From sequence record NC_027994.1: a stretch of DNA of 41,632 bases. The stretch is one strand, 5' to 3'. Within the stretch, counting starts at the first letter, position 1, and every line of letters begins with the position of its first letter. The notes beneath the pieces are model-generated. The model did not search any database and was not told the DNA's origin. It worked only from the letters and a program-made list of their open reading frames with translations. The translations under genes and the position numbers were made by a program. This DNA is from Escherichia phage K1H. Of the stretch, positions 13,165 to 35,236 are shown piece by piece.

Positions 13165-13581
13165 ATGAAACTTTCTGATTTTTATTTTGCTGACCGCCAC
13201 GCTGCTGGTACTAAAATGCCTATCCTTCTGCCGAGCGGTAAAGACTCCGGCGAATGGTTGCAGGTCATAGGCCCTGATTGTGATGCAGGTGTTCGTGCAG
13301 GCCGCGCCTACACAACGGCAATTAGACGCCTTACGGAAGAACTCGCGCCATTAGATAAAGAGTGTGAGGCGCTGAATAACTGGGCGCGCTATAACGACGA
13401 GAAGGGCTGGCGGGTGATGGACCTGAACAAGCAGCTTGCCGTGGAAATCGTCACCGGTTGGTCATTCGATGAGCCGTTCAGCAAAGAGGCGCTGGCTAAC
13501 CTGTTCGACCAGTACAGCGGACTGGCAGAAGCTGTAGTTAAGCACCACACCGATAGCCGCGAGAAACTCTCGGAAAAGTAA
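13165..13581 (+). CDS. Tail assembly chaperone (lambda gpG-like by position)
   Basis: 138-aa acidic protein upstream of tape measure gene. Confidence 0.5.
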   Translation: MKLSDFYFADRHAAGTKMPILLPSGKDSGEWLQVIGPDCDAGVRAGRAYTTAIRRLTEELAPLDKECEALNNWARYNDEKGWRVMDLNKQLAVEIVTGWSFDEPFSKEALANLFDQYSGLAEAVVKHHTDSREKLSEK

Positions 13582-13670
13582 AAGCGCTGTATGAATTTGC
13601 GCAATGGTGTTTTGTTGACCGCCATAAGCGTAAGCAATTTGACGACATCGCGGCGGGCCACCAGGCGGCT

Positions 13671-13943
13671 TTGATTGCAATGGGCGTGATTAAAGAACCG
13701 CAGATGAAAGAAGCGACGGGGCCAGAATGCCCCGTTTCTCTTATCGATGTGTTCGAGAAATACCGTGCCATTAAATTCCTACAGCGCGAAACAGATGATA
13801 CTATCGTTATAATCCCGCGCGACGCGCTCAAATGGCAAGATTTGGTAGCGTTTCGTGATGTCGCCGGTTACGGCATAAGTTTGTTCGAAGCCGAGGTTAT
13901 CATGGGCTTAGACGGAATATTTGAGGGCAGAGAAGATGGCTGA
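13671..13943 (+). CDS. Hypothetical protein (possible second tail chaperone)
   Basis: 90-aa ORF (TTG start in track, ATG at 13680) between chaperone and tape measure; no SD seen. Confidence 0.3.
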   Translation: MIAMGVIKEPQMKEATGPECPVSLIDVFEKYRAIKFLQRETDDTIVIIPRDALKWQDLVAFRDVAGYGISLFEAEVIMGLDGIFEGREDG

Positions 13944-16248
13944 TACGGCTTCCCTAATCGCCAGAGTAAAAACTGAAGGGGCTGACGTCGCTGCCAAACA
14001 GCTTGACGCTATGGCGGCATCCGCAGACCGAGCGGACACATCTGTAAACAAACTAACGCCGGATGTTAGTAAAGCTAACACAGCTACTTCTAAAGCCGCG
14101 TCCGATGGTTTTGCCAAGTTCCGTAACGCCGCCGGGCAGGTAGGCTTCCAGGTGCAGGACATGGTTGTCCAGTTGCAATCTGGTACGTCCGCATTCGTAG
14201 CAATCGGGCAACAAGGTTCGCAGCTTGCGGGTGCCTTCGGCCCAGGTGGTGCGGTGCTTGGGGCTGTAATTGCTCTTGCGTCCGCAATCGGCGGGGTCCT
14301 GTACAAGTCGCTAACAGAGGCGGAGGGGAGTTCAAAAGACCTCGAAGCCGCACAGAAACAGTTAAAAGATACTTTCCAGCAAACGGCATCCGGTTCTCTT
14401 GAACTGACAGACGGCCTTATCCAGCTTACCCAAATCAGCAGAGAAGCGGCGGAGACTCAGCTTGCTTTGGCTAAGGCTAACGCTGACCTTATCGCACAGC
14501 AAACAGCTAAAGCCGTTCGTGAGGACGCAGAATCGTGGGAAACATGGAAAGCCTCCACGGCATCGGCGATCAGCCAGTACGATGCACTGGTATCTAAGGG
14601 TGCGGATGTAGGCGACACATTAGAAAAACTCGGCGGCACTTACGAAGGTAACATCGTAGGTGTCAACATGCTGGCGCAGAATATCGCAGAGCTTAGCAGT
14701 AAGTTTGGGGTTAACCGCGACCAGGCGCTGGAGATGATAGCGGCGCAGAGCGCGTTTAACAAAGAGCCGACCGCCGAGAATGCACGCCGTATCGCCGATG
14801 TGTTTACTGACTGGCTAGGTAATACAAAACAGTTGAACCCGGAACTTATCCGCCTGACTGACAACGCCAACAAGAACGCCACGGCACTGGAGAACGCGGA
14901 GAAGTCGGCAAACGCGGTGGCGGAGGCCCAAAAGAATCTCGGCCGTAACGTCAACTCAACCACGCAGAGATTCCAGGAACAGAACGAAGCTATCGTCAAA
15001 AACCAGCAAATCGCCATCTTAAGCGACCGTGAGCGTATCCGGGCGCAAGCTGAACTGGATAAGCAGGCGTTTGCTAAACGTGAAGCTGTCACCAAAGAAC
15101 AGATAGCCGCGTATAACGCCGCCCGTGACGCGGAAGCGCAGCAAGACATCGCCCGCATTGACAAGACCGAGAAAGAGAAGGCAGACCGCGAGGCTAAATC
15201 TAACGAGAAACGTCTGGCGGCGCAGGCCAAACGTGAAGAAACGGCGGCGCAACGTCAGAAGAAAGCCGCTGAAGATTTCCTGGCTACTGTCGACCGCACT
15301 ACTGGAGACGAAATTTCTCGCATCACGGCGGCAGAAGAACAGAAACTGGCGAAACTTGAAGAGTTCAACCGTGCCGGAACAATAAGCCAGCAGCAGTACG
15401 AAAACGCCAAAACGCAGATTATGCTCACAGCCGAGCAGGCCCGACAGGAAGAACTGGATAAGAAAAGAAAAGAGCAGCAGGAAAAGCAACAGAAAGGTGA
15501 CGACTTCATGGCTCAGATTATGGGCCAGAACGCTACTGAGCTTGAGCTTCTCGACATCCAGGAACAGCAGAAGCTGGCGGTAGCAGATAAGTACCGTGAG
15601 CAGGGGCTTATTAGCGAGAAGCAGTATCAGGCCGCGCTTAACGCCATCAACGAGCAATACGCCACCAAGCGCGCCGACGCAACGGCAACCGCCTTCGGTA
15701 ACATGGCCTCAAACATCGGGTCTGCGTTGGGTGAGGCTTCCGGCGCGTACAAAGCATTCGCTATTGTGCAGGCCACTATCGCCACGTACACCGCGGCTAT
15801 TGAGGCGTACAAGTCTACGGCGGCTATCCCTGTTGTTGGCCCGTTTCTGGCTCCTGTAGCCGCTGCCGCTGCCGTTGGGGCGGGTATGGCGCAGATTTCA
15901 GCTATCAGGTCAGCACGTGAACAGGGCGGTCAGTTATCCGCGGGGCAGGCTTCTACTATCGCTGAACGTGGTAAACCCGAAGTTATCATGCCCGCTGGCG
16001 CATCGCGTGTACGCACCGCGCAGCAGATGAAAGAAATTATGGGGCAAAACGGGTCTTCTTCCGGCCCATCTAATGTTACCATTGTAAATAATACATCGAG
16101 TCAGATTGGCAACGTATCCACCGAGCAGGATGATGAAGGCCGTCTGCGTATCATCATTGAAGAACAGGTTGCCGCGTCTTTGCAGAACAGCAACAGTAAG
16201 ATTAGCAAGGCCCGCAAGGCCACAAGAAATGCGCCGGGGTTTAAATAA
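13936..16248 (+). CDS. Tail tape measure protein
   Basis: About 770 aa, Ala/Gln/Lys-rich coiled coil; GAGGG SD before ATG 13936 (track start 13921 is TTG). Confidence 0.8.
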   Translation: MADTASLIARVKTEGADVAAKQLDAMAASADRADTSVNKLTPDVSKANTATSKAASDGFAKFRNAAGQVGFQVQDMVVQLQSGTSAFVAIGQQGSQLAGAFGPGGAVLGAVIALASAIGGVLYKSLTEAEGSSKDLEAAQKQLKDTFQQTASGSLELTDGLIQLTQISREAAETQLALAKANADLIAQQTAKAVREDAESWETWKASTASAISQYDALVSKGADVGDTLEKLGGTYEGNIVGVNMLAQNIAELSSKFGVNRDQALEMIAAQSAFNKEPTAENARRIADVFTDWLGNTKQLNPELIRLTDNANKNATALENAEKSANAVAEAQKNLGRNVNSTTQRFQEQNEAIVKNQQIAILSDRERIRAQAELDKQAFAKREAVTKEQIAAYNAARDAEAQQDIARIDKTEKEKADREAKSNEKRLAAQAKREETAAQRQKKAAEDFLATVDRTTGDEISRITAAEEQKLAKLEEFNRAGTISQQQYENAKTQIMLTAEQARQEELDKKRKEQQEKQQKGDDFMAQIMGQNATELELLDIQEQQKLAVADKYREQGLISEKQYQAALNAINEQYATKRADATATAFGNMASNIGSALGEASGAYKAFAIVQATIATYTAAIEAYKSTAAIPVVGPFLAPVAAAAAVGAGMAQISAIRSAREQGGQLSAGQASTIAERGKPEVIMPAGASRVRTAQQMKEIMGQNGSSSGPSNVTIVNNTSSQIGNVSTEQDDEGRLRIIIEEQVAASLQNSNSKISKARKATRNAPGFK

Positions 16249-17260: not shown

Positions 17261-17622
17261 ATATTAACGACTACACGGGCATACCTTACGACTTTCGCAA
17301 ACGCAATTGCTGGCATCACGTGCGCATTGTCCGCGCGGATGCAGGGTTAGAAACCCCTGCGTTCGACGTTACAAGCCCTACGGCAATTAACGAAGCGTTT
17401 GACGAAGGCCACCGTGACACGAAGGGGCTTACAAAAATTGATAAGCCTGAAAACTTCTGCGCGGTGCTTATGGGTTATCGCCGCGGGGGTCGTATCGTGT
17501 GGCATGCGGGAGTTTACTTCGACGGGATGGTGAGTCATTGCGAGCTTGCATCCCGCCAGGTACGGCTTGACAGGCTGGCGGACCTCAGAGACACGTACAC
17601 GGAGATTGAATTTTGGCGATAA
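17257..17622 (+). CDS. Tail assembly protein with NlpC/P60-like Cys/His motifs (gpK-like)
   Basis: 121 aa; NCWHH, HAGVY and HCE motifs consistent with papain-like Cys-His-His triad. Confidence 0.55.
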   Translation: MNINDYTGIPYDFRKRNCWHHVRIVRADAGLETPAFDVTSPTAINEAFDEGHRDTKGLTKIDKPENFCAVLMGYRRGGRIVWHAGVYFDGMVSHCELASRQVRLDRLADLRDTYTEIEFWR

Positions 17623-20168
17623 TCCTGCACTACTCGCGAAACGCTGATGGCGCTTTCGACCGTACAAAACACGTCGGGATGCCGATGGAGTTTGTTGTTA
17701 GCCGTATTCCGGACGGCGTGCCGGTGCGCGTCTACCTCGGCGAGATTGGCGATGATACTGATGTAACCGACGACTTCGATGCGCTTAAAGACGAAGACGC
17801 CGTGTACCACATTATTGAGGGAGCTGGTAGCGGGGCGCTTGGCGCCGTTAGTAAGGTGTTTGGTTTTATCCTTAAGCCAATCGCTAAGTTGTTCGGCCTG
17901 AACATGTCTGCAAACGCCAACTACACGGCGACTAATAACCAGACAACATCGCCAAATAACAGCCTTACCGACCGCTCAAACAAGCCGCGTCCTTACGAGC
18001 GCTCTTATGACATCTGCGGGACTGTACAGACAATCCCTAACGACCTTATGCAGACGTATAAGGCGTTCAACTCCACGGGTGCTTTGCTGGAGTATTCGTA
18101 TTATGACGCTGGGCGCGGGCATCTGCATATCGAGGCTGATGGCGTCACAGAGGGCGACACCCTGATAAGCGACATCACAGGTTCCTCTGTTGCCATATAC
18201 GCGCCGTATACGTCACCGAACAACACCACATCTCCGCAACTACAAATCGGCGACATCATTGACCAGAAACTCTATGTGACATACTCCAACGACGACGTTG
18301 ACGGTATTGTACTAAAAGCGCCAAACGACATTGGGGCCAACCCAAGCGCTGATGGTACCGCAAAACGTATTTCAAACACCGGCTACATCTATGACCCGTC
18401 AGGGGACTCTGCTTTTTCTGAGTTTCTTAGCGTCGGTGATGTGGCAGTGCTGAGCAACTTTGACGTTGCTGATGTCACTAACCTGAACGGCTCGTTTGAG
18501 GTTTTATACGTTGACGACTTCGAAGTAAGATTAGCGGTAAACGGTGCGTCTAACTGGGCGGCGTTGACCAGCGGGCAGACGTACACGTTAACAGAGCGTT
18601 CAGATACGTTTATGGGCCCGAGCAACACCTATGACGTATCCCTTACCGACTGGTATTACATGGTGCGCGGAGAAGTTGACCGAGTACTTGCTAACGTTGC
18701 CGGGCAGAACGGCCTCTACAAATACGACGGTGGCTATAATCGCACCAGCGTAACGGTAGAACTCCAGTACCAGATGATTGACTCTCGGCGCAACCCATTG
18801 AGCGATATTTACACAGTACAGGCTACAATTACCGGTAATAGCACGGATTACGTCGGTACGTCTATCTACGGGCAATTGCCTACTGCATCGCGTTTCCGCG
18901 CCCGTATGCGCCGTATAACGAATTTTGATAAGGACTACAACGGTACAGTAAGCGACGAGATAACCTTCATCAACCTGTACGGGCAGTCGCTGGACACAAC
19001 CCCACACTACGGCAACCGAACTACCGTGCATTGCGCACGTAAACAGACGCCGCGTGCCGCCAGTATCGACAACCCAGAACTGCGCATGATTTCGACCGAG
19101 ATGTGTTACAAATACCTCGGCAATGGGGTATTCGATACAGTAATGACGCCTAATACACAGGCGGTGCAGTCGCTAATCAGACTGGCGCGTGACCCGGCGG
19201 TTGGTAATCTGGAGCTGACAACGGCAAACATGGACAAGTTACTTGCTGTGCAGGAAGAGATTGAATCTTATTTTGGCAGCGAATTAGCCGGGCAATTCTG
19301 CTACACGTTCGACGACTACGACACGACGATGCAGGACATTGTTCAGGCCATAGCTGAAGCCGTGTTCTGTACTGCGTACCGTAAAGGCGCGGACATTATG
19401 CTGCGTTTCGACCGTCCGGTTGCAGGGCCTGAAATGGTGTTCACCCACCGTAGTAAGACGACCGGTACGGAGAAATGGACACGCACGTTCAACGATTCTA
19501 CGACCTACGATAGCCTGTCGTTCTCATACATCGACCCGGATACTAACGTACAGGAAACGATTTACATCCCGGAAGAACTGGGTGCAAATACGGAGGAATA
19601 CGAATCAAAGGGCGTGCGTAACTACCAACAGGCATATTGGCTGGCGTGGCGTCGCTATCAGCGCAATGCGTTAAGTAAAGTTGTTGTAGAGTTCGAAGCT
19701 ACGGAAGAAGGTGCGCTCGCTACGCCCGGTGGGGTAATCAGCGTAGTTAAAGGTTCACGTATCGCGCCACAGGACGGCTATGTTGTTGCCGTTAACGGGC
19801 TTACACTTACGCTATCCCAGCCTGTTACGTTTACTCCTGGCGATGACCACTCCATCATCCTCAAGAAGCGCGATGGCTCAGTGCAGAGTATCTCTGTCAT
19901 CAAAGGAAGACACGACCGCGAAGTGATTATGCTCTCCGCGCCGGAAGAAGCAATCTACACGGGGAATAGCGCACTAAAAACTGAGTTTTCATTCGGCAAC
20001 GAAGCAAGGCATAATGCTCAGAAGATAGTTGTTTCTTCAATCGACCCTGGCGACGACCGCACGGTCAAGATTACTGGCTACAACTATGACGACGGATTCT
20101 ACAAATACGACGGCGTCGCGCCATACGGCAGCGGTTTCTCCGACGGATTCAGCAATGGTTTTAATTAA
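17613..20168 (+). CDS. Tail tip / host specificity protein (gpJ-like, possibly with gpI-like N-terminus)
   Basis: 851 aa, largest tail gene after tape measure; TTG start in track, first ATG at about 17679. Confidence 0.65.
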   Translation: MAIILHYSRNADGAFDRTKHVGMPMEFVVSRIPDGVPVRVYLGEIGDDTDVTDDFDALKDEDAVYHIIEGAGSGALGAVSKVFGFILKPIAKLFGLNMSANANYTATNNQTTSPNNSLTDRSNKPRPYERSYDICGTVQTIPNDLMQTYKAFNSTGALLEYSYYDAGRGHLHIEADGVTEGDTLISDITGSSVAIYAPYTSPNNTTSPQLQIGDIIDQKLYVTYSNDDVDGIVLKAPNDIGANPSADGTAKRISNTGYIYDPSGDSAFSEFLSVGDVAVLSNFDVADVTNLNGSFEVLYVDDFEVRLAVNGASNWAALTSGQTYTLTERSDTFMGPSNTYDVSLTDWYYMVRGEVDRVLANVAGQNGLYKYDGGYNRTSVTVELQYQMIDSRRNPLSDIYTVQATITGNSTDYVGTSIYGQLPTASRFRARMRRITNFDKDYNGTVSDEITFINLYGQSLDTTPHYGNRTTVHCARKQTPRAASIDNPELRMISTEMCYKYLGNGVFDTVMTPNTQAVQSLIRLARDPAVGNLELTTANMDKLLAVQEEIESYFGSELAGQFCYTFDDYDTTMQDIVQAIAEAVFCTAYRKGADIMLRFDRPVAGPEMVFTHRSKTTGTEKWTRTFNDSTTYDSLSFSYIDPDTNVQETIYIPEELGANTEEYESKGVRNYQQAYWLAWRRYQRNALSKVVVEFEATEEGALATPGGVISVVKGSRIAPQDGYVVAVNGLTLTLSQPVTFTPGDDHSIILKKRDGSVQSISVIKGRHDREVIMLSAPEEAIYTGNSALKTEFSFGNEARHNAQKIVVSSIDPGDDRTVKITGYNYDDGFYKYDGVAPYGSGFSDGFSNGFN

Positions 20169-20180
20169 AGAGGACTCTAT

Positions 20181-23135
20181 ATGTCAAGCGGATGCGGTGA
20201 CGTTTTAAGCCTGGCGGATTTACAAACCGCCAAGAAACATCAGATTTTCGAGGCCGAGGTTATCACTGGCAAATCCGGCGGTGTCGCCGGTGGTGCCGAT
20301 ATTGATTACGCGACAAATCAGGTTACTGGACAGACCCAGAAGACGTTACCTGCCGTGTTGCGTGATGCTGGTTTTAAACTGGCAGATTTTGATTTCACGT
20401 CAGGCGGTACACTATCCGCTAACGACCGAAACACCGCAGTTTTGTGGCCGTCGTCCTCTGGCGGTGACGGGGATTGGTACTATTGGTTGGGCGCTCTGCC
20501 AAAAACTATCCCGGCGTCATCTTCTCCGCAGTCTACAGGAGGCGTGTCCGAAGGGGCATGGCAACGCGCCGGGTCGGTCGTACTGAGGCAGCAAATATCT
20601 AATGCGAACGGCGCAATTCTGTACCCAGATTTACATGTGGCGCGATGGAAGGACGAATACGACCCGCGCGCATGGGGCGCCGTGGGCGACGGCGTAACTG
20701 ATGATACCCAATCTATTTTTAATGTATTAGCCGCTTCACCCAACAATTGGATTATAGACGGCAGGGGCTTGACTTATAAAGTTTCCCAATTACCCGACAT
20801 TAGTAAATTTAAGAATGCTGCATTCGTTTACGAGCGCGTAGCCGGGCAACCGCTTACTTATGTAGCTGATGGCTTCTTTAACAGCTCACTAACTAAGGTG
20901 ACGGATACCCCGTTCTACAACGCATGGACGCAGGATAAAACTTTCGTCTACGACAATGTTATTTACGCTCCGTTTATGGCAGGCGAACGACATGGCGTTC
21001 AAAACTTACATGTAGCTTGGGTTCGCTCTGGTGACGACGGGCAGACTTGGTCAATGCCTGAGTGGTTGACCCCAATCCATGCTGACTATAATGCTAGTGT
21101 TTCCGCGGACAGAGTTAACTACCACTGCATGAGCATGGGTACGTGCGGCAACCGATTATATGCAGTTATAGAAACCCGCTACTTATCTAATATGCGGATG
21201 AAGAAGGCAGAACTTTGGTCACGCCCAATGCCGTATTTTAGACACCCAACCGGCGGAATAGCTATTAGTTCTGGCTCCACTACTGCTACCATTGTCATAG
21301 AAAATCATGGCCTAAAAGCAGGAGATGCGGTTAACTTCTCTAATACATCGGCAACTGGCGTATCGGGTAATATGACGGTTGCGTCTATAATTAACCGAAA
21401 TACGTTCACTGTTACGCTCTCAAGCCCGGCGAGTTCCACCATAAACAATGCGGGTGTTACCTGGAACTTCGCAACGCGATTCTGGGACAGCCCGTGGGAA
21501 ATTACCGAATTGCCTGGGGTAGCATACTCCGCTAACGCTGATTTGTGTGTCACGGAGACACATAGTTTTGCGGTTATAGATGATGTTAACTACACTATCG
21601 CTGTCGGCTATCACAACGGCGATGTGCCCCCTAGGCGTCTCGGTGTCTTGTATTTTAGTAACGTGTATGACAATCCTGGCGTATTCGTTCGTCGCACTGT
21701 CGCTCAGGCATACGCTGATAACGCTTCTGAGCCGTGCGTGAAAAGTTATGACGGTGTACTCTACCTTACCACACGCGGCACATTACCTACTTCCCCTGGC
21801 TCTACACTGGCGATGAGCACCGATTCTGGGCAAAACTGGAGCTACTTGCGATTTCCGAACAATGTACATCACTCCAATCTTCCGTTCGCTAAAGTAGGTG
21901 ACTATCTCTACATCTTTGGTACAGAACGTGCCTTTGGCGAGTGGGAAGGGGGCGAGCCGGACAGCCGCTATGAAGGCTCGTATCCAAGGACCTTTATGTG
22001 CAAAGTTAATGTGTCGTCCTGGCCTCCATCTTTAGATGATGTTCAGTGGTTTAATATTACCGACCAAATATACCAGGGTCATATCGTTAACACTGCTGTC
22101 GGCGTCGGCTCGGTCTGTGTTAAAGATGGCTGGTTGTACTATATCTTTGGTGGGGAAGACTTCTTCTCTCCCTGGAGCATAGGGGATAACAGTGCGAAGT
22201 TATGGTACAAACATGATGGACATCCTGCTGACTTATATAGCTACCGGATAAAGATTGAAGACCACCCGTATGTATCCCGTGATTTCAAATACGGAGCAAC
22301 TCCTAACCGTACACTACCTGTCGCCATGGGGGTAGATGGTGTACGTCATGTAGGGGCACCTTTAACATTTGATAATGATGTAAGCGTGTACTCCCTGCAT
22401 GTAACGGGGCTGGAATACGATGGTACACAACAGTCCGCCGTGCGTGCACAGTTTGATGGTGATTACGGGCTGATTTCAAAAACAGTCCCCACTAAAACCC
22501 CATCGGGTCAAAGACTGATAGTTAGCGGTGGTGATGGTGCATCCAGTTCCGATGGTGCGTTGCTGCAACTGTACGGGGCAAACCATGCAATGCCTAACAG
22601 GGCTATTATGTATGCGTCAGGAGGCTTCTACTCATACAACAATTTCCTTCCTTACTTAGACTCGCAAGTGTCTTTAGGTTCGGCAGGTAATAGGTGGACT
22701 ACGGTGTACGCGACCACCGGTACGATAAACACGTCTGATGGTACACTTAAGACGAATAAAGAGGAAATTGAGGGACAACTCCTTACCGCATGGGAAGATA
22801 TACATGTAATATCTTTTAAGTGGCTTGAAAGCCTAGCAATCAAGGGTGACACTGCAAGGATACACTTCGGTGTGATAGCCCAAGATGTGCGAGACATCTT
22901 GGTCAACCATGGGCTTATGGAGAAAGATTCTACCGATTGTAAATATGCTTTCTTGTGCTACGACCCAATTGAAGCTGCGTATGATATTGATGAAGATGGC
23001 CAGACTGTACAAGTATCCCCTCCCGGCGGCAGATGGGGGGTTAGGGCGGACCAGATGTTCTTCATAGAGATTGCCTATCAGCGTAAGAAGATGCGCGAGT
23101 TCGAGAAGAGGCTGGCAGCACTAGAAGATAAATAA
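20181..23135 (+). CDS. Tailspike / receptor-binding depolymerase with C-terminal intramolecular chaperone domain
   Basis: 984 aa; GAVGDGVTDDT motif (pectate-lyase-like beta-helix signature), two Asp-box-like motifs (SGDDGQTW, STDSGQNW), C-terminal region resembling self-cleaving chaperone domains of tail fibers/endosialidases. Confidence 0.65.
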   Translation: MSSGCGDVLSLADLQTAKKHQIFEAEVITGKSGGVAGGADIDYATNQVTGQTQKTLPAVLRDAGFKLADFDFTSGGTLSANDRNTAVLWPSSSGGDGDWYYWLGALPKTIPASSSPQSTGGVSEGAWQRAGSVVLRQQISNANGAILYPDLHVARWKDEYDPRAWGAVGDGVTDDTQSIFNVLAASPNNWIIDGRGLTYKVSQLPDISKFKNAAFVYERVAGQPLTYVADGFFNSSLTKVTDTPFYNAWTQDKTFVYDNVIYAPFMAGERHGVQNLHVAWVRSGDDGQTWSMPEWLTPIHADYNASVSADRVNYHCMSMGTCGNRLYAVIETRYLSNMRMKKAELWSRPMPYFRHPTGGIAISSGSTTATIVIENHGLKAGDAVNFSNTSATGVSGNMTVASIINRNTFTVTLSSPASSTINNAGVTWNFATRFWDSPWEITELPGVAYSANADLCVTETHSFAVIDDVNYTIAVGYHNGDVPPRRLGVLYFSNVYDNPGVFVRRTVAQAYADNASEPCVKSYDGVLYLTTRGTLPTSPGSTLAMSTDSGQNWSYLRFPNNVHHSNLPFAKVGDYLYIFGTERAFGEWEGGEPDSRYEGSYPRTFMCKVNVSSWPPSLDDVQWFNITDQIYQGHIVNTAVGVGSVCVKDGWLYYIFGGEDFFSPWSIGDNSAKLWYKHDGHPADLYSYRIKIEDHPYVSRDFKYGATPNRTLPVAMGVDGVRHVGAPLTFDNDVSVYSLHVTGLEYDGTQQSAVRAQFDGDYGLISKTVPTKTPSGQRLIVSGGDGASSSDGALLQLYGANHAMPNRAIMYASGGFYSYNNFLPYLDSQVSLGSAGNRWTTVYATTGTINTSDGTLKTNKEEIEGQLLTAWEDIHVISFKWLESLAIKGDTARIHFGVIAQDVRDILVNHGLMEKDSTDCKYAFLCYDPIEAAYDIDEDGQTVQVSPPGGRWGVRADQMFFIEIAYQRKKMREFEKRLAALEDK

Positions 23136-23139
23136 AACT

Positions 23140-23163
23140 AAGGCCCCAAACGGGGCCTTTTCT
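23140..23163. terminator. Bidirectional intrinsic terminator
   Basis: GGCCCC-AAAC-GGGGCC plus TTTTCTC between convergent tailspike and leftward operon. Confidence 0.65.
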
Positions 23164-23367
23164 CTACCCTTCAGATAACTTCTCCAGTATGAACGCCAGT
23201 TGTGCATTAGCGGCGTCTCTTTGCTGCCGTAGTCGTAGAATCTCTTCTTCTAGTTCCTTGATACGTTTTATTTCTCGCTTTAACTGCATAGCAAGAAGTT
23301 GCTCGCGGGCATTAAGAGCAGATTTTACCAATTCGTTGCAGGCGTCAATATCAAACTCATTATTCAT
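23164..23367 (-). CDS. Hypothetical coiled-coil protein
   Basis: 67 aa, last gene of leftward operon. Confidence 0.45.
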   Translation of the reverse strand: MNNEFDIDACNELVKSALNAREQLLAMQLKREIKRIKELEEEILRLRQQRDAANAQLAFILEKLSEG

Positions 23368-23549
23368 TTCTTACCTTCGCTTTTCTTGAAACTGCGCTTT
23401 ATATCCGGCAGCGTGTAGCACCGTGATTTTTCGTATTTACCGTCCGAGCTTACCAAAACAAAGCTGTTGCCGTCTTTTGATATGTACTCGATGGCGAAAA
23501 TATTAAATGAATGTACGCTGTATATTTCATCGCCAACATTAAGTTTCAT
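23364..23549 (-). CDS. Hypothetical protein
   Basis: 61 aa, overlaps neighbours by 4 nt. Confidence 0.45.
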   Translation of the reverse strand: MKLNVGDEIYSVHSFNIFAIEYISKDGNSFVLVSSDGKYEKSRCYTLPDIKRSFKKSEGKK

Positions 23550-24979
23550 TTCTTACCTCGTCTCTTCATGTAATTAAGCAACTCTTCCTGTACAGATTTC
23601 TTCTCGTCGGTTCGCGCGGCAACAACTTCGTCCAGCGTGTCTTTAGCAACGATGTGGTACAGGAACACCGGCCTCTCGTGTCCTGCCTGTTTCTGGCGGA
23701 CCGGGCCTATTCGCTCGACAACCTGCAAATAGTGTTCAAGATTCCAGCCTTGCGAGATGAACGCCAGATGGTGTCCGCCGTCCTGTAAATTCAAACCATG
23801 ACCGGCTGACGCAGGGTGGACGCACAAAATCTCGATTTCGCCGCGGTTCCATGCTTCCATCTGCTTATTACCCTTAGCACCTTTCGCGAATGCCTGCGCC
23901 TGCGGGAAACGTTTCAGGATACGCTCCAGTTCGTGCTTGAACTGATAGGCTACCAGTAGCGGAGCACCCTGTAACTCCTCAACAATTGACTCCAGCGCAT
24001 CCAGTTTCGTGTCGTGCACTTTCTCCCAGTCTTTGGTTGCTTCTCCGTCTGGCCCTGATACATACACAGCACCAGAAGCAATCTGCAAACACTTTGACGT
24101 CTTTGCCGCGGCGTTAGCCGCTTCAACTTCTCCGCTTTCCAGTTCCGCGAATAACTTTTCCTCCATATCGATGTACGCCTGACGCGCCTTCTTCGGCAGG
24201 TCGATTTCAACCGGTACAATAATCGGCGCTTCGCAACCAAACCACTCGGCGGCGTCAATCGTGAGACTAATGTCTTTCATCTTCTGATGAATCTCATTAT
24301 CCGCACCCGGTCGTGCGTGATACTCCCGCGCCATCGCGGATTTCCCTTTCTGTACCGAGTTAAACCAGCGGTCTGTGAATGCCGTGTACGAAGAACCAAG
24401 GCAACCAAGGCGCTCGCCAGCGTCGATAAACCAGTTCTGCCCCCACAAGTCCTTGAGGCCGTTCGGCGACGGTGTGCCTGTCAGGTTAATGAAACGCTTA
24501 ACCTTTCCGAACGCCACTTTGCTTAGCGCCTTAGCCCGTTTGCTTCCTCCAGAACGGCTACGGAAAGATTTCAGCTTCGTGCTCTCATCAGCAACGATAA
24601 CCGTAAAAGGCCAGTCGTCTTTGCCGTAGTAGTCAATCAGCCACTCGATAACTTCGTAGTTTGTGCACACCACGTTAGCATCTGACTCCAGCGCCGCGAT
24701 ACGGCGCTTCTCTGAACCGGTTGCGTCTACGACACTCAGACAGGGGAAGTTCCAACGTGCCTGTTCCGCGGGCCACGTACCTGACGCAACACGTAAAGGA
24801 GCCAGAATTAACACTCGGTCGTCGTCATTAAGTTGCCCATTACGGAACAGCCGATTGAGAACCCACAACGTTGACCCCGACTTACCGCTGCCCATGCTCG
24901 CCCAGATATTGCAGCGATGGTGCCGCAGCATGAACGAAGTCATGAGCTTCTGGTATTCGCGCCTTTGAAACTTACTCAT
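23546..24979 (-). CDS. SNF2/DEAD-like superfamily II helicase
   Basis: 477 aa; Walker A-like SMGSGKS, DExx box VADEST, C-terminal helicase motifs. Confidence 0.75.
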   Translation of the reverse strand: MSKFQRREYQKLMTSFMLRHHRCNIWASMGSGKSGSTLWVLNRLFRNGQLNDDDRVLILAPLRVASGTWPAEQARWNFPCLSVVDATGSEKRRIAALESDANVVCTNYEVIEWLIDYYGKDDWPFTVIVADESTKLKSFRSRSGGSKRAKALSKVAFGKVKRFINLTGTPSPNGLKDLWGQNWFIDAGERLGCLGSSYTAFTDRWFNSVQKGKSAMAREYHARPGADNEIHQKMKDISLTIDAAEWFGCEAPIIVPVEIDLPKKARQAYIDMEEKLFAELESGEVEAANAAAKTSKCLQIASGAVYVSGPDGEATKDWEKVHDTKLDALESIVEELQGAPLLVAYQFKHELERILKRFPQAQAFAKGAKGNKQMEAWNRGEIEILCVHPASAGHGLNLQDGGHHLAFISQGWNLEHYLQVVERIGPVRQKQAGHERPVFLYHIVAKDTLDEVVAARTDEKKSVQEELLNYMKRRGKK

Positions 24980-25796
24980 TTACCGCCCCCATAAACGCCT
25001 TTATAAATTCGGCGGCTACTTGCGGGACGATGGCATTGCCGTAACCGCGCAATCGTCCCACTCTGGCGGGTATCCCATTAGCCAGCGGGAATGCGCCGGG
25101 TTCAACCGGCCGGAACTTTCCATCACGGCATCCGAGCCAGTCAGCATCTGACCAGAAGCCGTGGTGCGGGTTGGTTGACTCGCTTTCAATCCCTGCTCTG
25201 TTGAGTAGTCCAGCCTGTCGAATGTTCTGTCCCTCCCGTCCGTGCGAATCACTGTCTCTCCGCTCCCTCTGAAGTCGTTCGCTGTCGGTGTAGGCCAGTT
25301 CGTGCGCGCCAAAGAAGAGTCGTTCTCTTTTGTGCGGTGCGCCGACGCTACAAGCTGGGAGTACAGCAAACCCGACGGCGTAGTCTTCTCCTTCCAGGTG
25401 AGCTTGTAAATCGCACATCCACGATTTTGCAATTGCTGCCGCAACCTGCTCCCCAAAGATGACTGGAGGGCGGCACTCGCTGATGAGGTCGAGGAAGACC
25501 GGCGCGAGGTGTCTCGGGTCGAACTGTCCGAGTTGCTTTCCCGCCGCGCTAAACGGTTGGCAAGGCGGGCTTCCCGTCCAGAGAGGCGCATCTTCCGGAA
25601 CTCCCGCAAGTCTGAGCGCGAGAGGCCAGCCGCCGATACCCGCGAAAAAATGACACTGGGTGAACCCGTCAAGGTCTTCTGGCTTAACTTCGGTAATGCT
25701 TCTTTCATCTACAACTCCAAAAGGTATGTGACCCTGTTTTATCAACTCACGCAGCCACGCGGCTGCGCCTTTATCCCATTCATTGTAATAGTTCAT
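24972..25796 (-). CDS. DNA (cytosine-5)-methyltransferase (orphan)
   Basis: 274 aa; motif I FAGIGG and motif [13 protein letters not shown] (catalytic Pro-Cys); no adjacent restriction endonuclease. Confidence 0.7.
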
Positions 25797-32044: not shown

Positions 32045-34312
32045 CTATTCTAAATCCTCCTCTGTCACTGTTAACAGTTCATTCGGTTCGTATATCGTCT
32101 TCGGAATCTTGTTATCAGTTATCCGGGTGTTCAGCCTGTAACGGCCAGGGATTATCTGATTGTTTTCGTCAGTCCCCGGAACAAGATACCCAGCCTCAAC
32201 CATTTTCTTAATCTTCCCGCGTTCTATGGCTTCTTTGGAGTTAAACGCCTTTGCATTGGGGTCAGACTGTGCGAGCTTATTAGCGGCGGCGACTGTGATG
32301 CCTTCGTTGCCGTTGTAGGTTCCTTCCGCCAGTTCAAACGCCGCCAGTATCGTGGCTTCTGAACTGTTGACGGCGTTCTCTATGGTTTTACGTACGTTTT
32401 CTTTACCTTCTTTCGTCAACCCTTCTTCCCGCTCTTTCTCCTCGTCAGTCTTGAACGGCTCGAAACCCCACGGCATTAACACAAGTGCCTTATGCGGCTC
32501 CGGCAGGTCGAGGTTTACGATTGTGCCGTATTCCTCCGTGCTACCGAGGAACTCAACCGCACGGTACTCTTTCGGCGGCGGCGCTTCACGGAACTGTACA
32601 GACTCCAGCACCATACCAACCGTCTTCTGTTGAGGCCCGTGCTTGAATTTCGAGTGGTATACATTTATCTGGCGGTCGGTAGCTCGTTCGATTGTCAGTT
32701 CCACGTCGACGCCAGCATACAGCGCCCCACTGCCACGGGCTTTCTTTCCGCCCTTCGGCGTATGGTGGACAACGCCTACCGCAGCTTTAGTCGCGTCACG
32801 TACTTCTTTCAGGATGGCGATAACCTTACCCATGCCGATTGCCGTTGATGAACTGTTCTCGTCGAACTTATCAATCGTCAGGGCTAGCGTCTGGTTGAGG
32901 GTGTCGAACGCAACCATGCCGATGGGTTCGTCACCCGCAGTTTCACGCATCAACTTAATCAGGCTTTTCAGTTTTCCGACTTCGCCCATGTCGATGACAT
33001 GTACATAATCTTTACCTTCCTCGCTATACTTAGCTGCGAGCGCATCGATACGGGTGCGTGTAGCTGCGCCGCCCTCACCGTCGATATAAAAATGGTGGCA
33101 ACGCTGCGTATCTGCCCCCGCAAACCGGTATCCGGCGGCGCTCAGGTACATCATCCCCAGCGTATAGAACGATTTGTACGTTCCGGATTCCCCGACAATA
33201 TCCCAGATACAATCTGACGGCATGTACCCTTCAACGACGAAATCCGCCTTTACCGGTTCCGGTAACTCGTCATCCTCTGAGTCCTCGTCATCTTCCAGGT
33301 CGTCGAGGCTGCATGAAACAGATTCACGTGCACCCCATCCGATGGCCTCTGCGACTTCACTGAACGGCAGCCCCGTCGCATCGCACGCATACTTCCACAC
33401 CTCTTTCGGTGACATGCCTTCGGTCGCCGTAATGTCAGTGTCGTGAATCATGGTTACGTTCGGCGCCTCATATCCCTCTCGCGGGAAGCACAGCAGGAAG
33501 TCATCCGGGCGCGGCGTCGGGTCGCTGTAGTTTTCTGCGTGTTCTGGCGTAGCTGGCATCTTAAGGCCTCGTGGCGTCATGATACCGCCATACTCGAACG
33601 CCAGTGCCTCGAACGCGTCGGTAAACGCGGTGCGCAGTTCTTCCGGTATCTGGTAATCCGATGCGCTGCTAACGTCAACGGCAGGGATGCCTTCCAGTAA
33701 CTCGTCCGGGTCAATCAGGTCGTTGCGGCGTGACCAGATAACGGTAGAGCCAACCGGAGGCAGGTACATCGGTTGCGAAAGAGTGAACCCGCTGCGGTCA
33801 GCACCCATGCTTTTGAAGAAGTGTTCCAGCAATCCATGGCGAACACGGATGATGTCACCACCTTCGACCGGACGGGCCAGCGGCATGACGACGCGAAAGC
33901 GCGGGGACTCGTCGGTATGTGATGCCGTGGTATAGATACACATGCCCCGGCGGCTGCGTTTAACTAAGCGCACCGCTTCCTGATACTCTTCTGGTGTTGC
34001 GCTGTCGAAGTCCAGATACGCCAGCGACGATTTGCTTACAGACGCGTCACAGCGATAGAAAAAGCCTTTACGCGCTTGCTTAAAGTCGCCGGTTTCCGGG
34101 TCTTTTACAGTGCTGTGCGTCGAGTCGCACGCGGCGGTGATATAACCGGGCGCGGTCTTCGGGTTAATTCCGTCACGGACAGCATCGAGTGGCTGGATTA
34201 ACTCTTTCAGGTCGTCCAGTGTTGCCGTGTGTGTGGTTCTGACGTTTATATCCTTTTTCTCTGCCCGCGCGTTGCGACGTGACCACGAGTAGGATAAAAT
34301 TACATCGGACAT
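32045..34312 (-). CDS. DNA primase/helicase-like replication protein
   Basis: 755 aa; central RecA/P-loop-like segment GESGTYKS and hhhhD motif VAFDTL; assignment by size and context. Confidence 0.65.
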   Translation of the reverse strand: MSDVILSYSWSRRNARAEKKDINVRTTHTATLDDLKELIQPLDAVRDGINPKTAPGYITAACDSTHSTVKDPETGDFKQARKGFFYRCDASVSKSSLAYLDFDSATPEEYQEAVRLVKRSRRGMCIYTTASHTDESPRFRVVMPLARPVEGGDIIRVRHGLLEHFFKSMGADRSGFTLSQPMYLPPVGSTVIWSRRNDLIDPDELLEGIPAVDVSSASDYQIPEELRTAFTDAFEALAFEYGGIMTPRGLKMPATPEHAENYSDPTPRPDDFLLCFPREGYEAPNVTMIHDTDITATEGMSPKEVWKYACDATGLPFSEVAEAIGWGARESVSCSLDDLEDDEDSEDDELPEPVKADFVVEGYMPSDCIWDIVGESGTYKSFYTLGMMYLSAAGYRFAGADTQRCHHFYIDGEGGAATRTRIDALAAKYSEEGKDYVHVIDMGEVGKLKSLIKLMRETAGDEPIGMVAFDTLNQTLALTIDKFDENSSSTAIGMGKVIAILKEVRDATKAAVGVVHHTPKGGKKARGSGALYAGVDVELTIERATDRQINVYHSKFKHGPQQKTVGMVLESVQFREAPPPKEYRAVEFLGSTEEYGTIVNLDLPEPHKALVLMPWGFEPFKTDEEKEREEGLTKEGKENVRKTIENAVNSSEATILAAFELAEGTYNGNEGITVAAANKLAQSDPNAKAFNSKEAIERGKIKKMVEAGYLVPGTDENNQIIPGRYRLNTRITDNKIPKTIYEPNELLTVTEEDLE

Positions 34313-34370
34313 GTTGTATTTCCTTCAGCAAGTAATTTGGCCTCGGCGTTCACCGCGTCGGGGCTTTCTT

Positions 34371-34691
34371 TTATTCCAGGTCGTGGGAGATATTACCCTC
34401 GGGCACCAACACTTTTCCAATACTTCTCGCTTTCTCTGTAATAGGCGTCGCTCTTGTTGCCCGATAAAACTTTCCTTTATTAAGAATCTCACCATGTCGC
34501 TCGAGCACATCTAAAGCATGTTTGATCGGGTTTACACCGTAATTATCCAACCGGTATCTCCGAAGCCCGTCTACCGTAAAAGCGCCGTTCGCTTCGGTCA
34601 GTCTGCGTGCACACATTAATATGTGTTTCTGGAATTTAGTTAGCATCTTTAACGTTCTCCTTAATCCACGCCTCCACAGTAGCGCGGTCAA
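34371..34691 (-). CDS. Hypothetical protein
   Basis: 106-aa track ORF overlapping upstream gene by 56 nt; true start probably an internal ATG. Confidence 0.4.
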   Translation of the reverse strand: MTALLWRRGLRRTLKMLTKFQKHILMCARRLTEANGAFTVDGLRRYRLDNYGVNPIKHALDVLERHGEILNKGKFYRATRATPITEKARSIGKVLVPEGNISHDLE

Positions 34692-34815
34692 AGGTACCTG
34701 GCTGACGGTAGCCGTTAATAACCCGGCAACACTCAGGGAACTTACCCGACCGCAGCCAGCGATTAAGCGTCATAGGAGAAACTCCGATTAAGTCTGCTAC
34801 TTCTTTCTGTGTCAT
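34636..34815 (-). CDS. AlpA/excisionase-family HTH DNA-binding protein
   Basis: 59 aa from ATG 34815 (AGAGGG SD); MTQKEVADLIGVSPMTLNRWLRSGKFP... matches AlpA-like pattern. Confidence 0.55.
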   Translation of the reverse strand: MTQKEVADLIGVSPMTLNRWLRSGKFPECCRVINGYRQPGTFDRATVEAWIKENVKDAN

Positions 34816-34844
34816 TTTACACGCCCTCTTTATCAAGTGAAACA

Positions 34845-34873
34845 ACTATAACACCCACAATAGCCAAACACAA
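34845..34873 (-). promoter_or_regulatory. Putative minus-strand promoter (TTGTGT-N17-TATAGT)
   Basis: TATAGT -10 as in class-2 promoters; 23 nt upstream of AlpA-like ATG. Confidence 0.35.
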
Positions 34874-34877
34874 CCTA

Positions 34878-34905
34878 TTGACAAAATAAAATGTAGCTGT
34901 AAAAT
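34878..34905 (+). promoter_or_regulatory. Strong sigma70-like promoter (TTGACA-N16-TAAAAT)
   Basis: Consensus -35, near-consensus -10; faces a 390-nt region lacking any ATG. Confidence 0.55.
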
Positions 34906-35236
34906 CAATGTATCGAAGGACCTTAATTCAGAATTACTTAGAAACATCATTCTTAAGTCTCGGGTACTTAAAGCCCCGCCCTAAAGCGGGGCGCTAAACA
35001 GTACTCTTGGTAACGTTAGTATCTAAGTTTCCTCAAAGTAACAGCAAGTAGCAAGAAAGCCTCCGTCTATTTAAATTTTACCCTCCTTCATAAGCTACTG
35101 ATAATTAAAAGTTTCTATAGTTGCCGTAAGCGAGGTAGAGAGTACTTCACTCCGCTGGGGTGGGCTAACGCCCACCCACTGCGTTGCGTACTCCTTTAAG
35201 AAACGAAAGAATCACAACGGCAACGTAACTATTCTC

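Follow-up and report, generated by a model that had tools for sequence, protein, structure and literature searches.

The tailspike gene of Escherichia phage K1H, a probable K1-capsule endosialidase of the K1G-like type

Described endosialidases and the K1H locus

The nearest described relatives of the K1H tailspike are the enzymes of K1G-type siphophages: K1G ORF27 (ADA82273), 63D (BAA32990), JSSK01 ORF40, fKuEco01 KE1_029 and that of MirsaeidiM_Esher4. The 63D, K1G and JSSK01-type endosialidases act on the K1 capsule, an alpha-2,8 polysialic acid (PMC11641727, PMC5380687), and the recombinant JSSK01 enzyme, with a reported identity of 97.8% to its K1G counterpart, degrades this capsule (PMC11641727). 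Crystal structures come from two other phages. The phi92 gp143 enzyme (4HIZ) hydrolyses both alpha-2,8 and alpha-2,9 linkages (PMC13450770), and in K1F EndoNF (1V0E, 3GVL, 3GW6) residues H350, R549, E581, R596, R647, S911 and K916 are catalytic and mutation-intolerant (PMC12632334). A self-cleavage mechanism relying on an Asp/Arg/Thr/Ser/Lys set has been described for T5 pb1 and K1F (PMC4690869).

Here, we analysed one gene in its genomic setting, using as window the whole 41,632-nucleotide sequence of Escherichia phage K1H (NC_027994.1). This window is a Kagunavirus genome, complete and of the K1G-like siphophage type; it is collinear with K1G and fKuEco01, in which the tailspike gene likewise comes after that for the tail-tip protein. 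The gene and its flanking signals are as follows.

20168-20174, + strand: AAGAGGA ribosome-binding site, read from the sequence, 6 nt 5' of the ATG
20181-23135, + strand: predicted endosialidase tailspike gene, ATG start, 984 codons plus stop, predicted precursor of 108.0 kDa
23140-23159, no strand assigned: GC-rich hairpin with a GGCCCCAAACGGGGCC core, T runs flanking it on both strands, terminator-like site

The stop codon of the preceding tail-tip gene (17613-20168) overlaps the AAGAGGA site, and in AB015437 a ribosome-binding site is annotated at the equivalent position. The hairpin has a folding energy of -15.5 kcal/mol (z = -3.4) and likely acts as a terminator in both directions where the structural (+) and replication (-) modules converge. 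A promoter scan of the region returned sites no more numerous than in shuffled sequence, so no promoter was called, and neither tRNAs nor Rfam families were found within the window. A gene-call artefact or a fusion was ruled out, since the 984 codons are also found, without stops, in K1G, 63D and Esher4, and since both the ribosome-binding site and the terminator are present.

We put at about 95% the probability that the product of this gene is an endosialidase (endo-N-acetylneuraminidase) serving as tailspike in a K1G-like siphophage (Kagunavirus), judged by its domains, its conserved residues, its close identity to enzymes already characterised and the genomic setting. No feature of the sequence speaks against this assignment. 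Identity amounts to 98.3% with the counterpart in MirsaeidiM_Esher4, 97.4% with that of K1G and 96.4% with the phage 63D endo-N-acetylneuraminidase, and 19 phage records, many from phages isolated on O18:K1 hosts, contain the full gene at ~94.5-98% nucleotide identity. The K1G-type enzymes share with it the length of 984 aa, the five-domain architecture, the genomic slot and the catalytic and cleavage residues, and differ from it only by 17-35 scattered substitutions. Thirteen of these set the K1H protein apart from K1G and Esher4 alike; they leave every mapped catalytic and cleavage residue untouched, and P483 lies two residues from the active-site residue R485. From the 96-98% identity to the 63D, K1G and JSSK01-type enzymes we infer endo-cleavage of alpha-2,8 polysialic acid by a homotrimer; for 63D, a tetramer has been reported. 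The earlier note on this DNA had held that the glycan specificity could not be read from sequence; it is in fact readable by homology because these relatives have the K1 capsule as substrate, and the E. coli K1 capsule is the probable target. Of the capsule- or O-antigen-degrading activity suggested earlier, the reading as a predicted capsule depolymerase is supported.

Domain layout and match to solved structures

The 984-aa open reading frame with its GAVGDGVTDDT motif, two Asp boxes and chaperone-like C-terminal region, as noticed earlier, is present exactly in this gene. The domains and motifs, all on the + strand, are listed below.

20181-20435, + strand: Guernseyvirinae-specific virion-attachment module, aa 1-85 (end approximate), delimited by tblastn, K1ind3 comparison and PHROGs
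20436-20675, + strand: neck resembling Tail_spike_N (TSP1/Gp66 type), aa 86-165, Pfam PF18668 at aa 97-131, E 1.6e-12
20676-20708, + strand: GAVGDGVTDDT motif, aa 166-176, exact match, first residues of the endosialidase module
20679-20879, + strand: endosialidase N-terminal extension, aa 167-233, Pfam PF12218, E 8.6e-38, full model length
20880-22259, + strand: catalytic six-bladed beta-propeller, aa 234-693, Pfam PF12217, E 1.9e-223, model 1-367/367
21027-21050, + strand: Asp box SGDDGQTW, aa 283-290, exact match, within the propeller
21231-21479, + strand: lectin-like beta-barrel inserted in the propeller, aa 351-433, Pfam PF12195, E 9.5e-41, model 1-83/83
21816-21839, + strand: Asp box STDSGQNW, aa 546-553, exact match, within the propeller
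22260-22733, + strand: trimeric stalk (endosialidase tailspike domain), aa 694-851, Pfam PF12219, E 1.7e-73, ending at Thr851
22734-23132, + strand: intramolecular chaperone (Peptidase_S74), aa 852-984, 15.2 kDa, Pfam PF13884, E 8e-13 (aa 852-912)
22734-22751, + strand: SDGTLK, aa 852-857, exact match, start of the chaperone

All five endosialidase-specific Pfam domains are present, each matched over its whole model and in the usual order. The protein thus combines the sequence features of a phage endosialidase, a family that we take to be CAZy GH58, namely the propeller, the inserted beta-barrel and stalk, the active-site residues and the two Asp boxes. These boxes are a genuine sialidase signature, as had been proposed; they lie inside the full-length endosialidase beta-propeller defined by Pfam, and both are kept in the EndoNF alignment. 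The listed motifs are far beyond chance, being located inside Pfam matches (E 2e-223 to 8e-13) and structure alignments (E = 0 to 1e-230).

The reading of the gene as a receptor-binding tailspike is supported. The protein displays both the attachment module shared by Kagunavirus/Guernseyvirinae tailspikes and the slot downstream of the tail-tip gene. This module matches phrog_29731 and phrog_20900, and aa 1-85 are common to tailspikes with unrelated catalytic specificity. With tblastn, Jersey-like phages of Salmonella reach 70-73% identity to aa 1-138, and the HK620-like spike of K1ind3 is 67% identical over aa 1-147. The neck (aa 86-165) matches 9VVR, 4OJ5 and 8X8M in the PDB.

Solved structures cover aa 166-984. 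Searching the PDB with phmmer gave the phi92 endosialidase 4HIZ as the best match (E = 0, 1303 bits, aa 166-851), followed by K1F EndoNF 1V0E/3GVL (E ~1e-230) and by 3GW6, the EndoNF stalk and chaperone (E 3e-56). Residues 166-851 align end to end with the crystallised beta-propeller endosialidases 4HIZ and 1V0E, and aa 781-984 alone retrieved 3GW6 (E 8.5e-48), 3GUD (2e-11) and 4UW8 (2e-7). The residues for catalysis and cleavage do not differ in phi92 gp143, and identity to a phi92-like gene is 83.2% in the propeller and ~71% in the stalk and chaperone; however, phi92 has a different N-terminal attachment module (myophage baseplate versus siphophage tail tip here), and its chaperone bears tentacle insertions totalling ~29 residues that the K1H protein lacks. 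K1F EndoNF shares fold and domain order with the K1H protein all the way from GDGVTDDT to the C-terminus, and its neck before the motif, upstream of the catalytic fragment, is homologous to aa 86-165. Its identity is lower, at 51.5% overall and 58.5% in the propeller, its N-terminus is of the T7 gp17 type, unlike that of the K1H protein, and its chaperone insertions are longer. The beta-barrel of K1F equivalent to the one inserted here is a second polysialic-acid binding site.

Alignment places EndoNF H350/R549/E581/R596/R647 at H271/R485/E517/R532/R583, which are identical in six aligned endosialidases, and S911/K916 at S852/K857, both of which are kept. Likewise, D827, R838 and T851 are spaced by 11 and 13 residues, equal to D1239, R1250 and T1263 of T5 pb1, so that the residue set 827/838/851/852/857 and its spacing fit the T5 pb1/K1F mechanism (PMC4690869). 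The 4HIZ chain terminates at the residue aligned to T851. Thr851 is thus predicted to be the C-terminus of a mature 92.7 kDa protein, the released chaperone being of 15.2 kDa. The chaperone of endosialidases recognised earlier at the C-terminus is confirmed by the Peptidase_S74 and 3GW6 matches and by the conservation of Ser852/Lys857 together with Asp827/Arg838/Thr851, and self-cleavage is predicted. Finally, Q853 of K1F, one of three stalk-site residues that were compared, is Leu both here and in the phi92-like enzyme; because of this change, processivity may differ from that of K1F.

The GAVGDGVTDDT motif and competing readings

The GAVGDGVTDDT motif had been taken as a hallmark of right-handed beta-helix depolymerases, which would make the protein a composite depolymerase with a pectate-lyase-like right-handed beta-helix body in addition to sialidase-like Asp boxes. 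The motif is real and common to beta-helix tailspikes: the Serratia phage Eta spike shows GAIGNGIADDT followed by a Pfam Beta_helix domain, and CBA120 TSP1 (4OJ5) aligns through the motif, up to aa 184. However, homology to beta-helix spikes ends at aa 176-184, and aa 166-851 align end to end with beta-propeller endosialidases as described above. No match to Pectate_lyase_3/Beta_helix models (PF12708, PF13229 or related) was obtained with the whole protein at E <= 1 or with aa 151-260 at E <= 10, while the phage Eta spike, used as a positive control for Pfam detection, returned Beta_helix with E 2.8e-15. A beta-helix body was therefore rejected, as Pfam gave only endosialidase models at these permissive thresholds and the alignment to 4HIZ and 1V0E runs end to end; we consider it extremely improbable. 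The motif instead makes up the first 11 residues of the crystallised endosialidase region and corresponds to residues 2-12 in the 4HIZ chain and 5-15 in the 3GVL chain. A GxxGDGxTDDT-type motif is present at aa 166-176 and is likewise the conserved module start in K1F, phi92 and K1G, hence it is not diagnostic of a beta-helix. Among related spikes, Eta_0069, K1ind3 ORF27 and Salmonella Jersey-like spikes share the N-terminal module at 62-73% identity over aa 1-138 or 1-176, Eta also sharing the GxxGxGxxDDT motif, but they carry right-handed beta-helices or HK620-like domains as catalytic bodies and no S74 chaperone, whereas the K1H protein switches to an endosialidase at the motif. Because homology with the beta-helix spike of Eta (Eta_0069) ends exactly there, the motif is here a module joint and not the sign of a beta-helix.

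Two further readings leave the endosialidase fold in place. One is a catalytically dead tailspike that would act as a polysialic-acid lectin, adsorbing but not degrading. Single substitutions can turn endosialidases into binding-only proteins, according to a passage of PMC5380687 citing Jakobsson 2007, and the K1H protein has the 13 private substitutions mentioned above. Yet the five catalytic residues that were mapped are all unchanged, and the gene is conserved at 98% identity to genes of isolated plaque-forming K1 phages. The inactive variant was rejected on the conservation of the catalytic residues, and the odds of it are very small. The other reading would refine the endosialidase explanation without replacing it: the enzyme could be bifunctional and non-processive like phi92 gp143, efficient on alpha-2,8 linkages and weak on alpha-2,9 linkages, with the K92 capsule usable. 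The K92 capsule consists of alternating 2,8/2,9 linkages. A propeller closer to the phi92 type than to K1F, the dual linkage cleavage described for phi92 gp143 (PMC13450770) and the shared Leu at the Q853 position argue for this reading, but ~17% of the propeller residues differ from the phi92 type and the close relatives were all isolated on K1 hosts, and we regard it as possible though doubtful. Equally tentative is the joint proposal that K1G-type enzymes share the weak alpha-2,9 activity and non-processive mode of phi92, which would widen the host range to K92 capsules, and that GxxGDGxTDDT is a recombination joint at which one attachment module may be swapped between beta-helix and beta-propeller bodies.

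Proposed mode of action and meaning for K1G-like phages

For the endosialidase tailspike, catalysis, trimerisation and autoproteolysis are inferred from its homologs, and a mechanism can be proposed from K1F EndoNF and phi92 gp143. Three 108-kDa chains would assemble under the guidance of the C-terminal chaperone (aa 852-984), which would seed the folding of the stalk trimer. After correct trimer formation, Lys857 would activate Ser852 to cut the Thr851-Ser852 bond, freeing the 15-kDa chaperone and leaving a 93-kDa mature subunit. The mature trimer would be fixed to the tail tip via aa 1 to ~85, with the neck (aa 86-165) next, and would present a mushroom-shaped head in which each subunit contributes a six-bladed propeller active site (H271, R485, E517, R532, R583) together with the inserted, polysialic-acid-binding beta-barrel. 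The phage would thus tunnel to the outer membrane, and its host range would be limited to K1-capsulated, and possibly also K92, strains.

This tailspike is already known as an ordinary K1-capsule endosialidase of K1G-like phages, and it raises no new biological question; even if true, neither a phi92-like activity nor a recombination joint would be a new kind of system. A minor lesson of wider use is that GDGxTDDT by itself does not suffice to diagnose a beta-helix depolymerase. The value of the finding is one of annotation only: it identifies a predicted, ready-made capsule depolymerase, a kind of enzyme that has already been explored in therapy and K1 typing, places the phage in the K1-capsule-dependent Kagunavirus group and predicts a host range among E. 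coli K1, whose capsule type is that of strains causing neonatal meningitis, urinary-tract infections and disease in birds.

Tailspike gene and domain content

The tailspike ORF at 20181-23135 (+) is real, with an ATG start and 984 codons, and every motif named in the earlier note was found in its product. The features of the gene and the protein are as follows:

6 nt upstream of the ATG: ribosome-binding site AAGAGGA, which overlaps the stop codon ending the tail-tip gene before it
aa 1 to about 85: attachment module
aa 86-165: neck
aa 97-131: Tail_spike_N segment (Pfam)
aa 166-851: endosialidase body
aa 166-176 (nt 20676-20708): motif GAVGDGVTDDT
aa 167-233: End_N_terminal (Pfam, E 9e-38)
aa 234-693: End_beta_propel (Pfam, E 2e-223)
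aa 283-290: Asp box SGDDGQTW
aa 351-433: End_beta_barrel, inserted (Pfam, E 1e-40)
aa 546-553: Asp box STDSGQNW
aa 694-851: End_tail_spike (Pfam, E 2e-73)
aa 852-984: chaperone
aa 852-857: SDGTLK
aa 852-912: Peptidase_S74 (Pfam, E 8e-13)
23140-23159: GC-rich hairpin 3' of the gene (-15.5 kcal/mol, z = -3.4), where the convergent structural and replication modules meet

The five endosialidase-specific Pfam models match at full model length and in canonical order, and the gene occupies the slot of K1G ORF27 ("tailspike 63D sialidase"). The tailspike identity proposed earlier is correct; the two Asp boxes, also correctly recognized, lie within the End_beta_propel span. Among solved structures, the top match is the phi92 endosialidase 4HIZ (aa 166-851, E = 0; confirmed as such in PMC6116203), followed by EndoNF of phage K1F (1V0E/3GVL, E about 1e-230), whose stalk-plus-chaperone structure 3GW6 also matches (E 3e-56).

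The protein is 98.3% identical to its counterpart in MirsaeidiM_Esher4, 97.4% to that of K1G and 96.4% to the endo-N-acetylneuraminidase of 63D; the capsule-depolymerase role proposed earlier is supported. The glycan specificity had been held unreadable from sequence, a view contradicted by the identity to 63D, which reviews name among the endo-N-acetylneuraminidases that cut capsular polysialic acid at internal alpha-2,8 linkages (PMC5380687). The JSSK01 enzyme is of the same type with the same four Pfam domains, is 97.8% identical to the K1G enzyme by that paper's own figure, and breaks down the K1 capsule as a recombinant protein (PMC11641727). The tailspike is an already known feature.

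The GAVGDGVTDDT segment and modular build

The beta-helix fold deduced earlier from GAVGDGVTDDT does not hold, since no beta-helix family matched the protein in a Pfam scan at permissive thresholds that readily detected Beta_helix in the spike of Serratia phage Eta (Eta_0069), and the endosialidase module of K1F, phi92 and the K1G type conserves this motif at its start. The Eta spike (comparison sequence L008, 2501-4672) shares 62% identity over aa 1-176, and homology stops exactly at the motif. Other non-endosialidase spike matches (4OJ5, 9VVR and several PHROGs) also stop, at aa 181-184, and the K1ind3 spike changes to an HK620-like body earlier, at about aa 117-147. These end points at or near the motif, or before it, indicate that the protein is modular, and the sequences suggest that the GxxGxGxxDDT segment may be a recurrent recombination joint for the exchange of catalytic bodies of unrelated folds. 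Residues 1-138 are common to Salmonella Jersey-like phages.

The K1ind3 spike (GU196281; L007, 3529-5694) bears a misleading GenBank name, "tailspike 63D sialidase": its resemblance to the endosialidase protein is confined to about the first 117-147 residues, the HK620-like remainder having no endosialidase domain.

Relatives and genome context

The window is an essentially complete Kagunavirus (Guernseyvirinae) genome, collinear with K1G, fKuEco01 and the Smith-Huggins phages G, L and P with nucleotide identity of 93-98% across the greater part of the sequence, apart from a few mosaic blocks. Because its first base, at the terminase large subunit ATG, is also where the records of K1G and fKuEco01 begin, it is apparently the whole genome as deposited. 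Window 13258-15428, 32123-35200 and 23270-23544 gave no blastn match in fKuEco01; the first of these blocks spans the tail-assembly chaperone and 5' tape-measure region, the second the helicase-primase region, and the third the small ORFs that directly follow the tailspike gene. K1G matches the second half of the window, including the helicase-primase block, at 97.6% identity. Such mosaicism is typical modular exchange. Neither tRNA genes nor above-threshold Rfam families were found in 1-41632.

The full tailspike gene is present in 19 phage records at about 94.5-98% nucleotide identity, many of these phages having been isolated on O18:K1 hosts. In the closest relative, MirsaeidiM_Esher4 (PQ579973; L005, 3001-5955), the CDS seems to have been called too short: "tailspike endosialidase" is annotated over the final 429 codons only, while the 984-codon ORF is intact.

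Elsewhere, a putative 230-aa ORF (25016-25708, -) lies wholly inside the C5-cytosine DNA methylase gene (24972-25796, -), on the same strand in another frame. In K1G and fKuEco01 it is labelled "Mte8-like protein" or "putative methyltransferase", but no Pfam model matches it.

Catalytic residues, self-cleavage and proposed mechanism

Residues were mapped by aligning the window's tailspike with those of K1G, 63D and MirsaeidiM_Esher4, a phi92-like gene and K1F EndoNF. One K1F stalk-site residue, Q853, is replaced by Leu. The catalytic and mutation-intolerant K1F residues H350, R549, E581, R596 and R647 (PMC12632334) are all conserved, as H271, R485, E517, R532 and R583. The propeller is 83% identical to the phi92 type versus 58.5% to K1F, and phi92 gp143 reportedly cleaves alpha-2,8 as well as alpha-2,9 linkages (PMC13450770). 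Regioselectivity and processivity may therefore differ from those of K1F EndoNF.

The self-cleavage dyad S911/K916 corresponds to S852/K857, which, with the Peptidase_S74 and 3GW6 matches, supports the self-cleaving C-terminal chaperone predicted earlier. Upstream, D827, R838 and T851 have the spacing of the Asp/Arg/Thr set in the mechanism proposed for T5 pb1 and K1F (PMC4690869). The predicted cut before Ser852 would split the 108.0-kDa precursor into a mature chain of 92.7 kDa and a chaperone of 15.2 kDa (computed masses). The phi92-like and K1F chaperone domains have insertions, about 29 residues in all (the "tentacle" hairpin region), that are missing from the domain here (22734-23132). 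Reportedly, Morley et al. found in 2009 that the K1F EndoNF mechanism is inverting, unlike that of exosialidases. The report of 63D endosialidase as a homotetramer (PMC5380687) sits oddly with its trimeric homologues and with trimer-dependent chaperone cleavage.

By homology, the chaperone domain would drive trimerisation and folding of the stalk and then cut itself off via Ser852/Lys857, and the mature trimer would be fixed to the tail tip. Polysialic acid would be bound at the beta-barrel and stalk and cleaved in the propeller active site, which would let the phage reach the cell surface.
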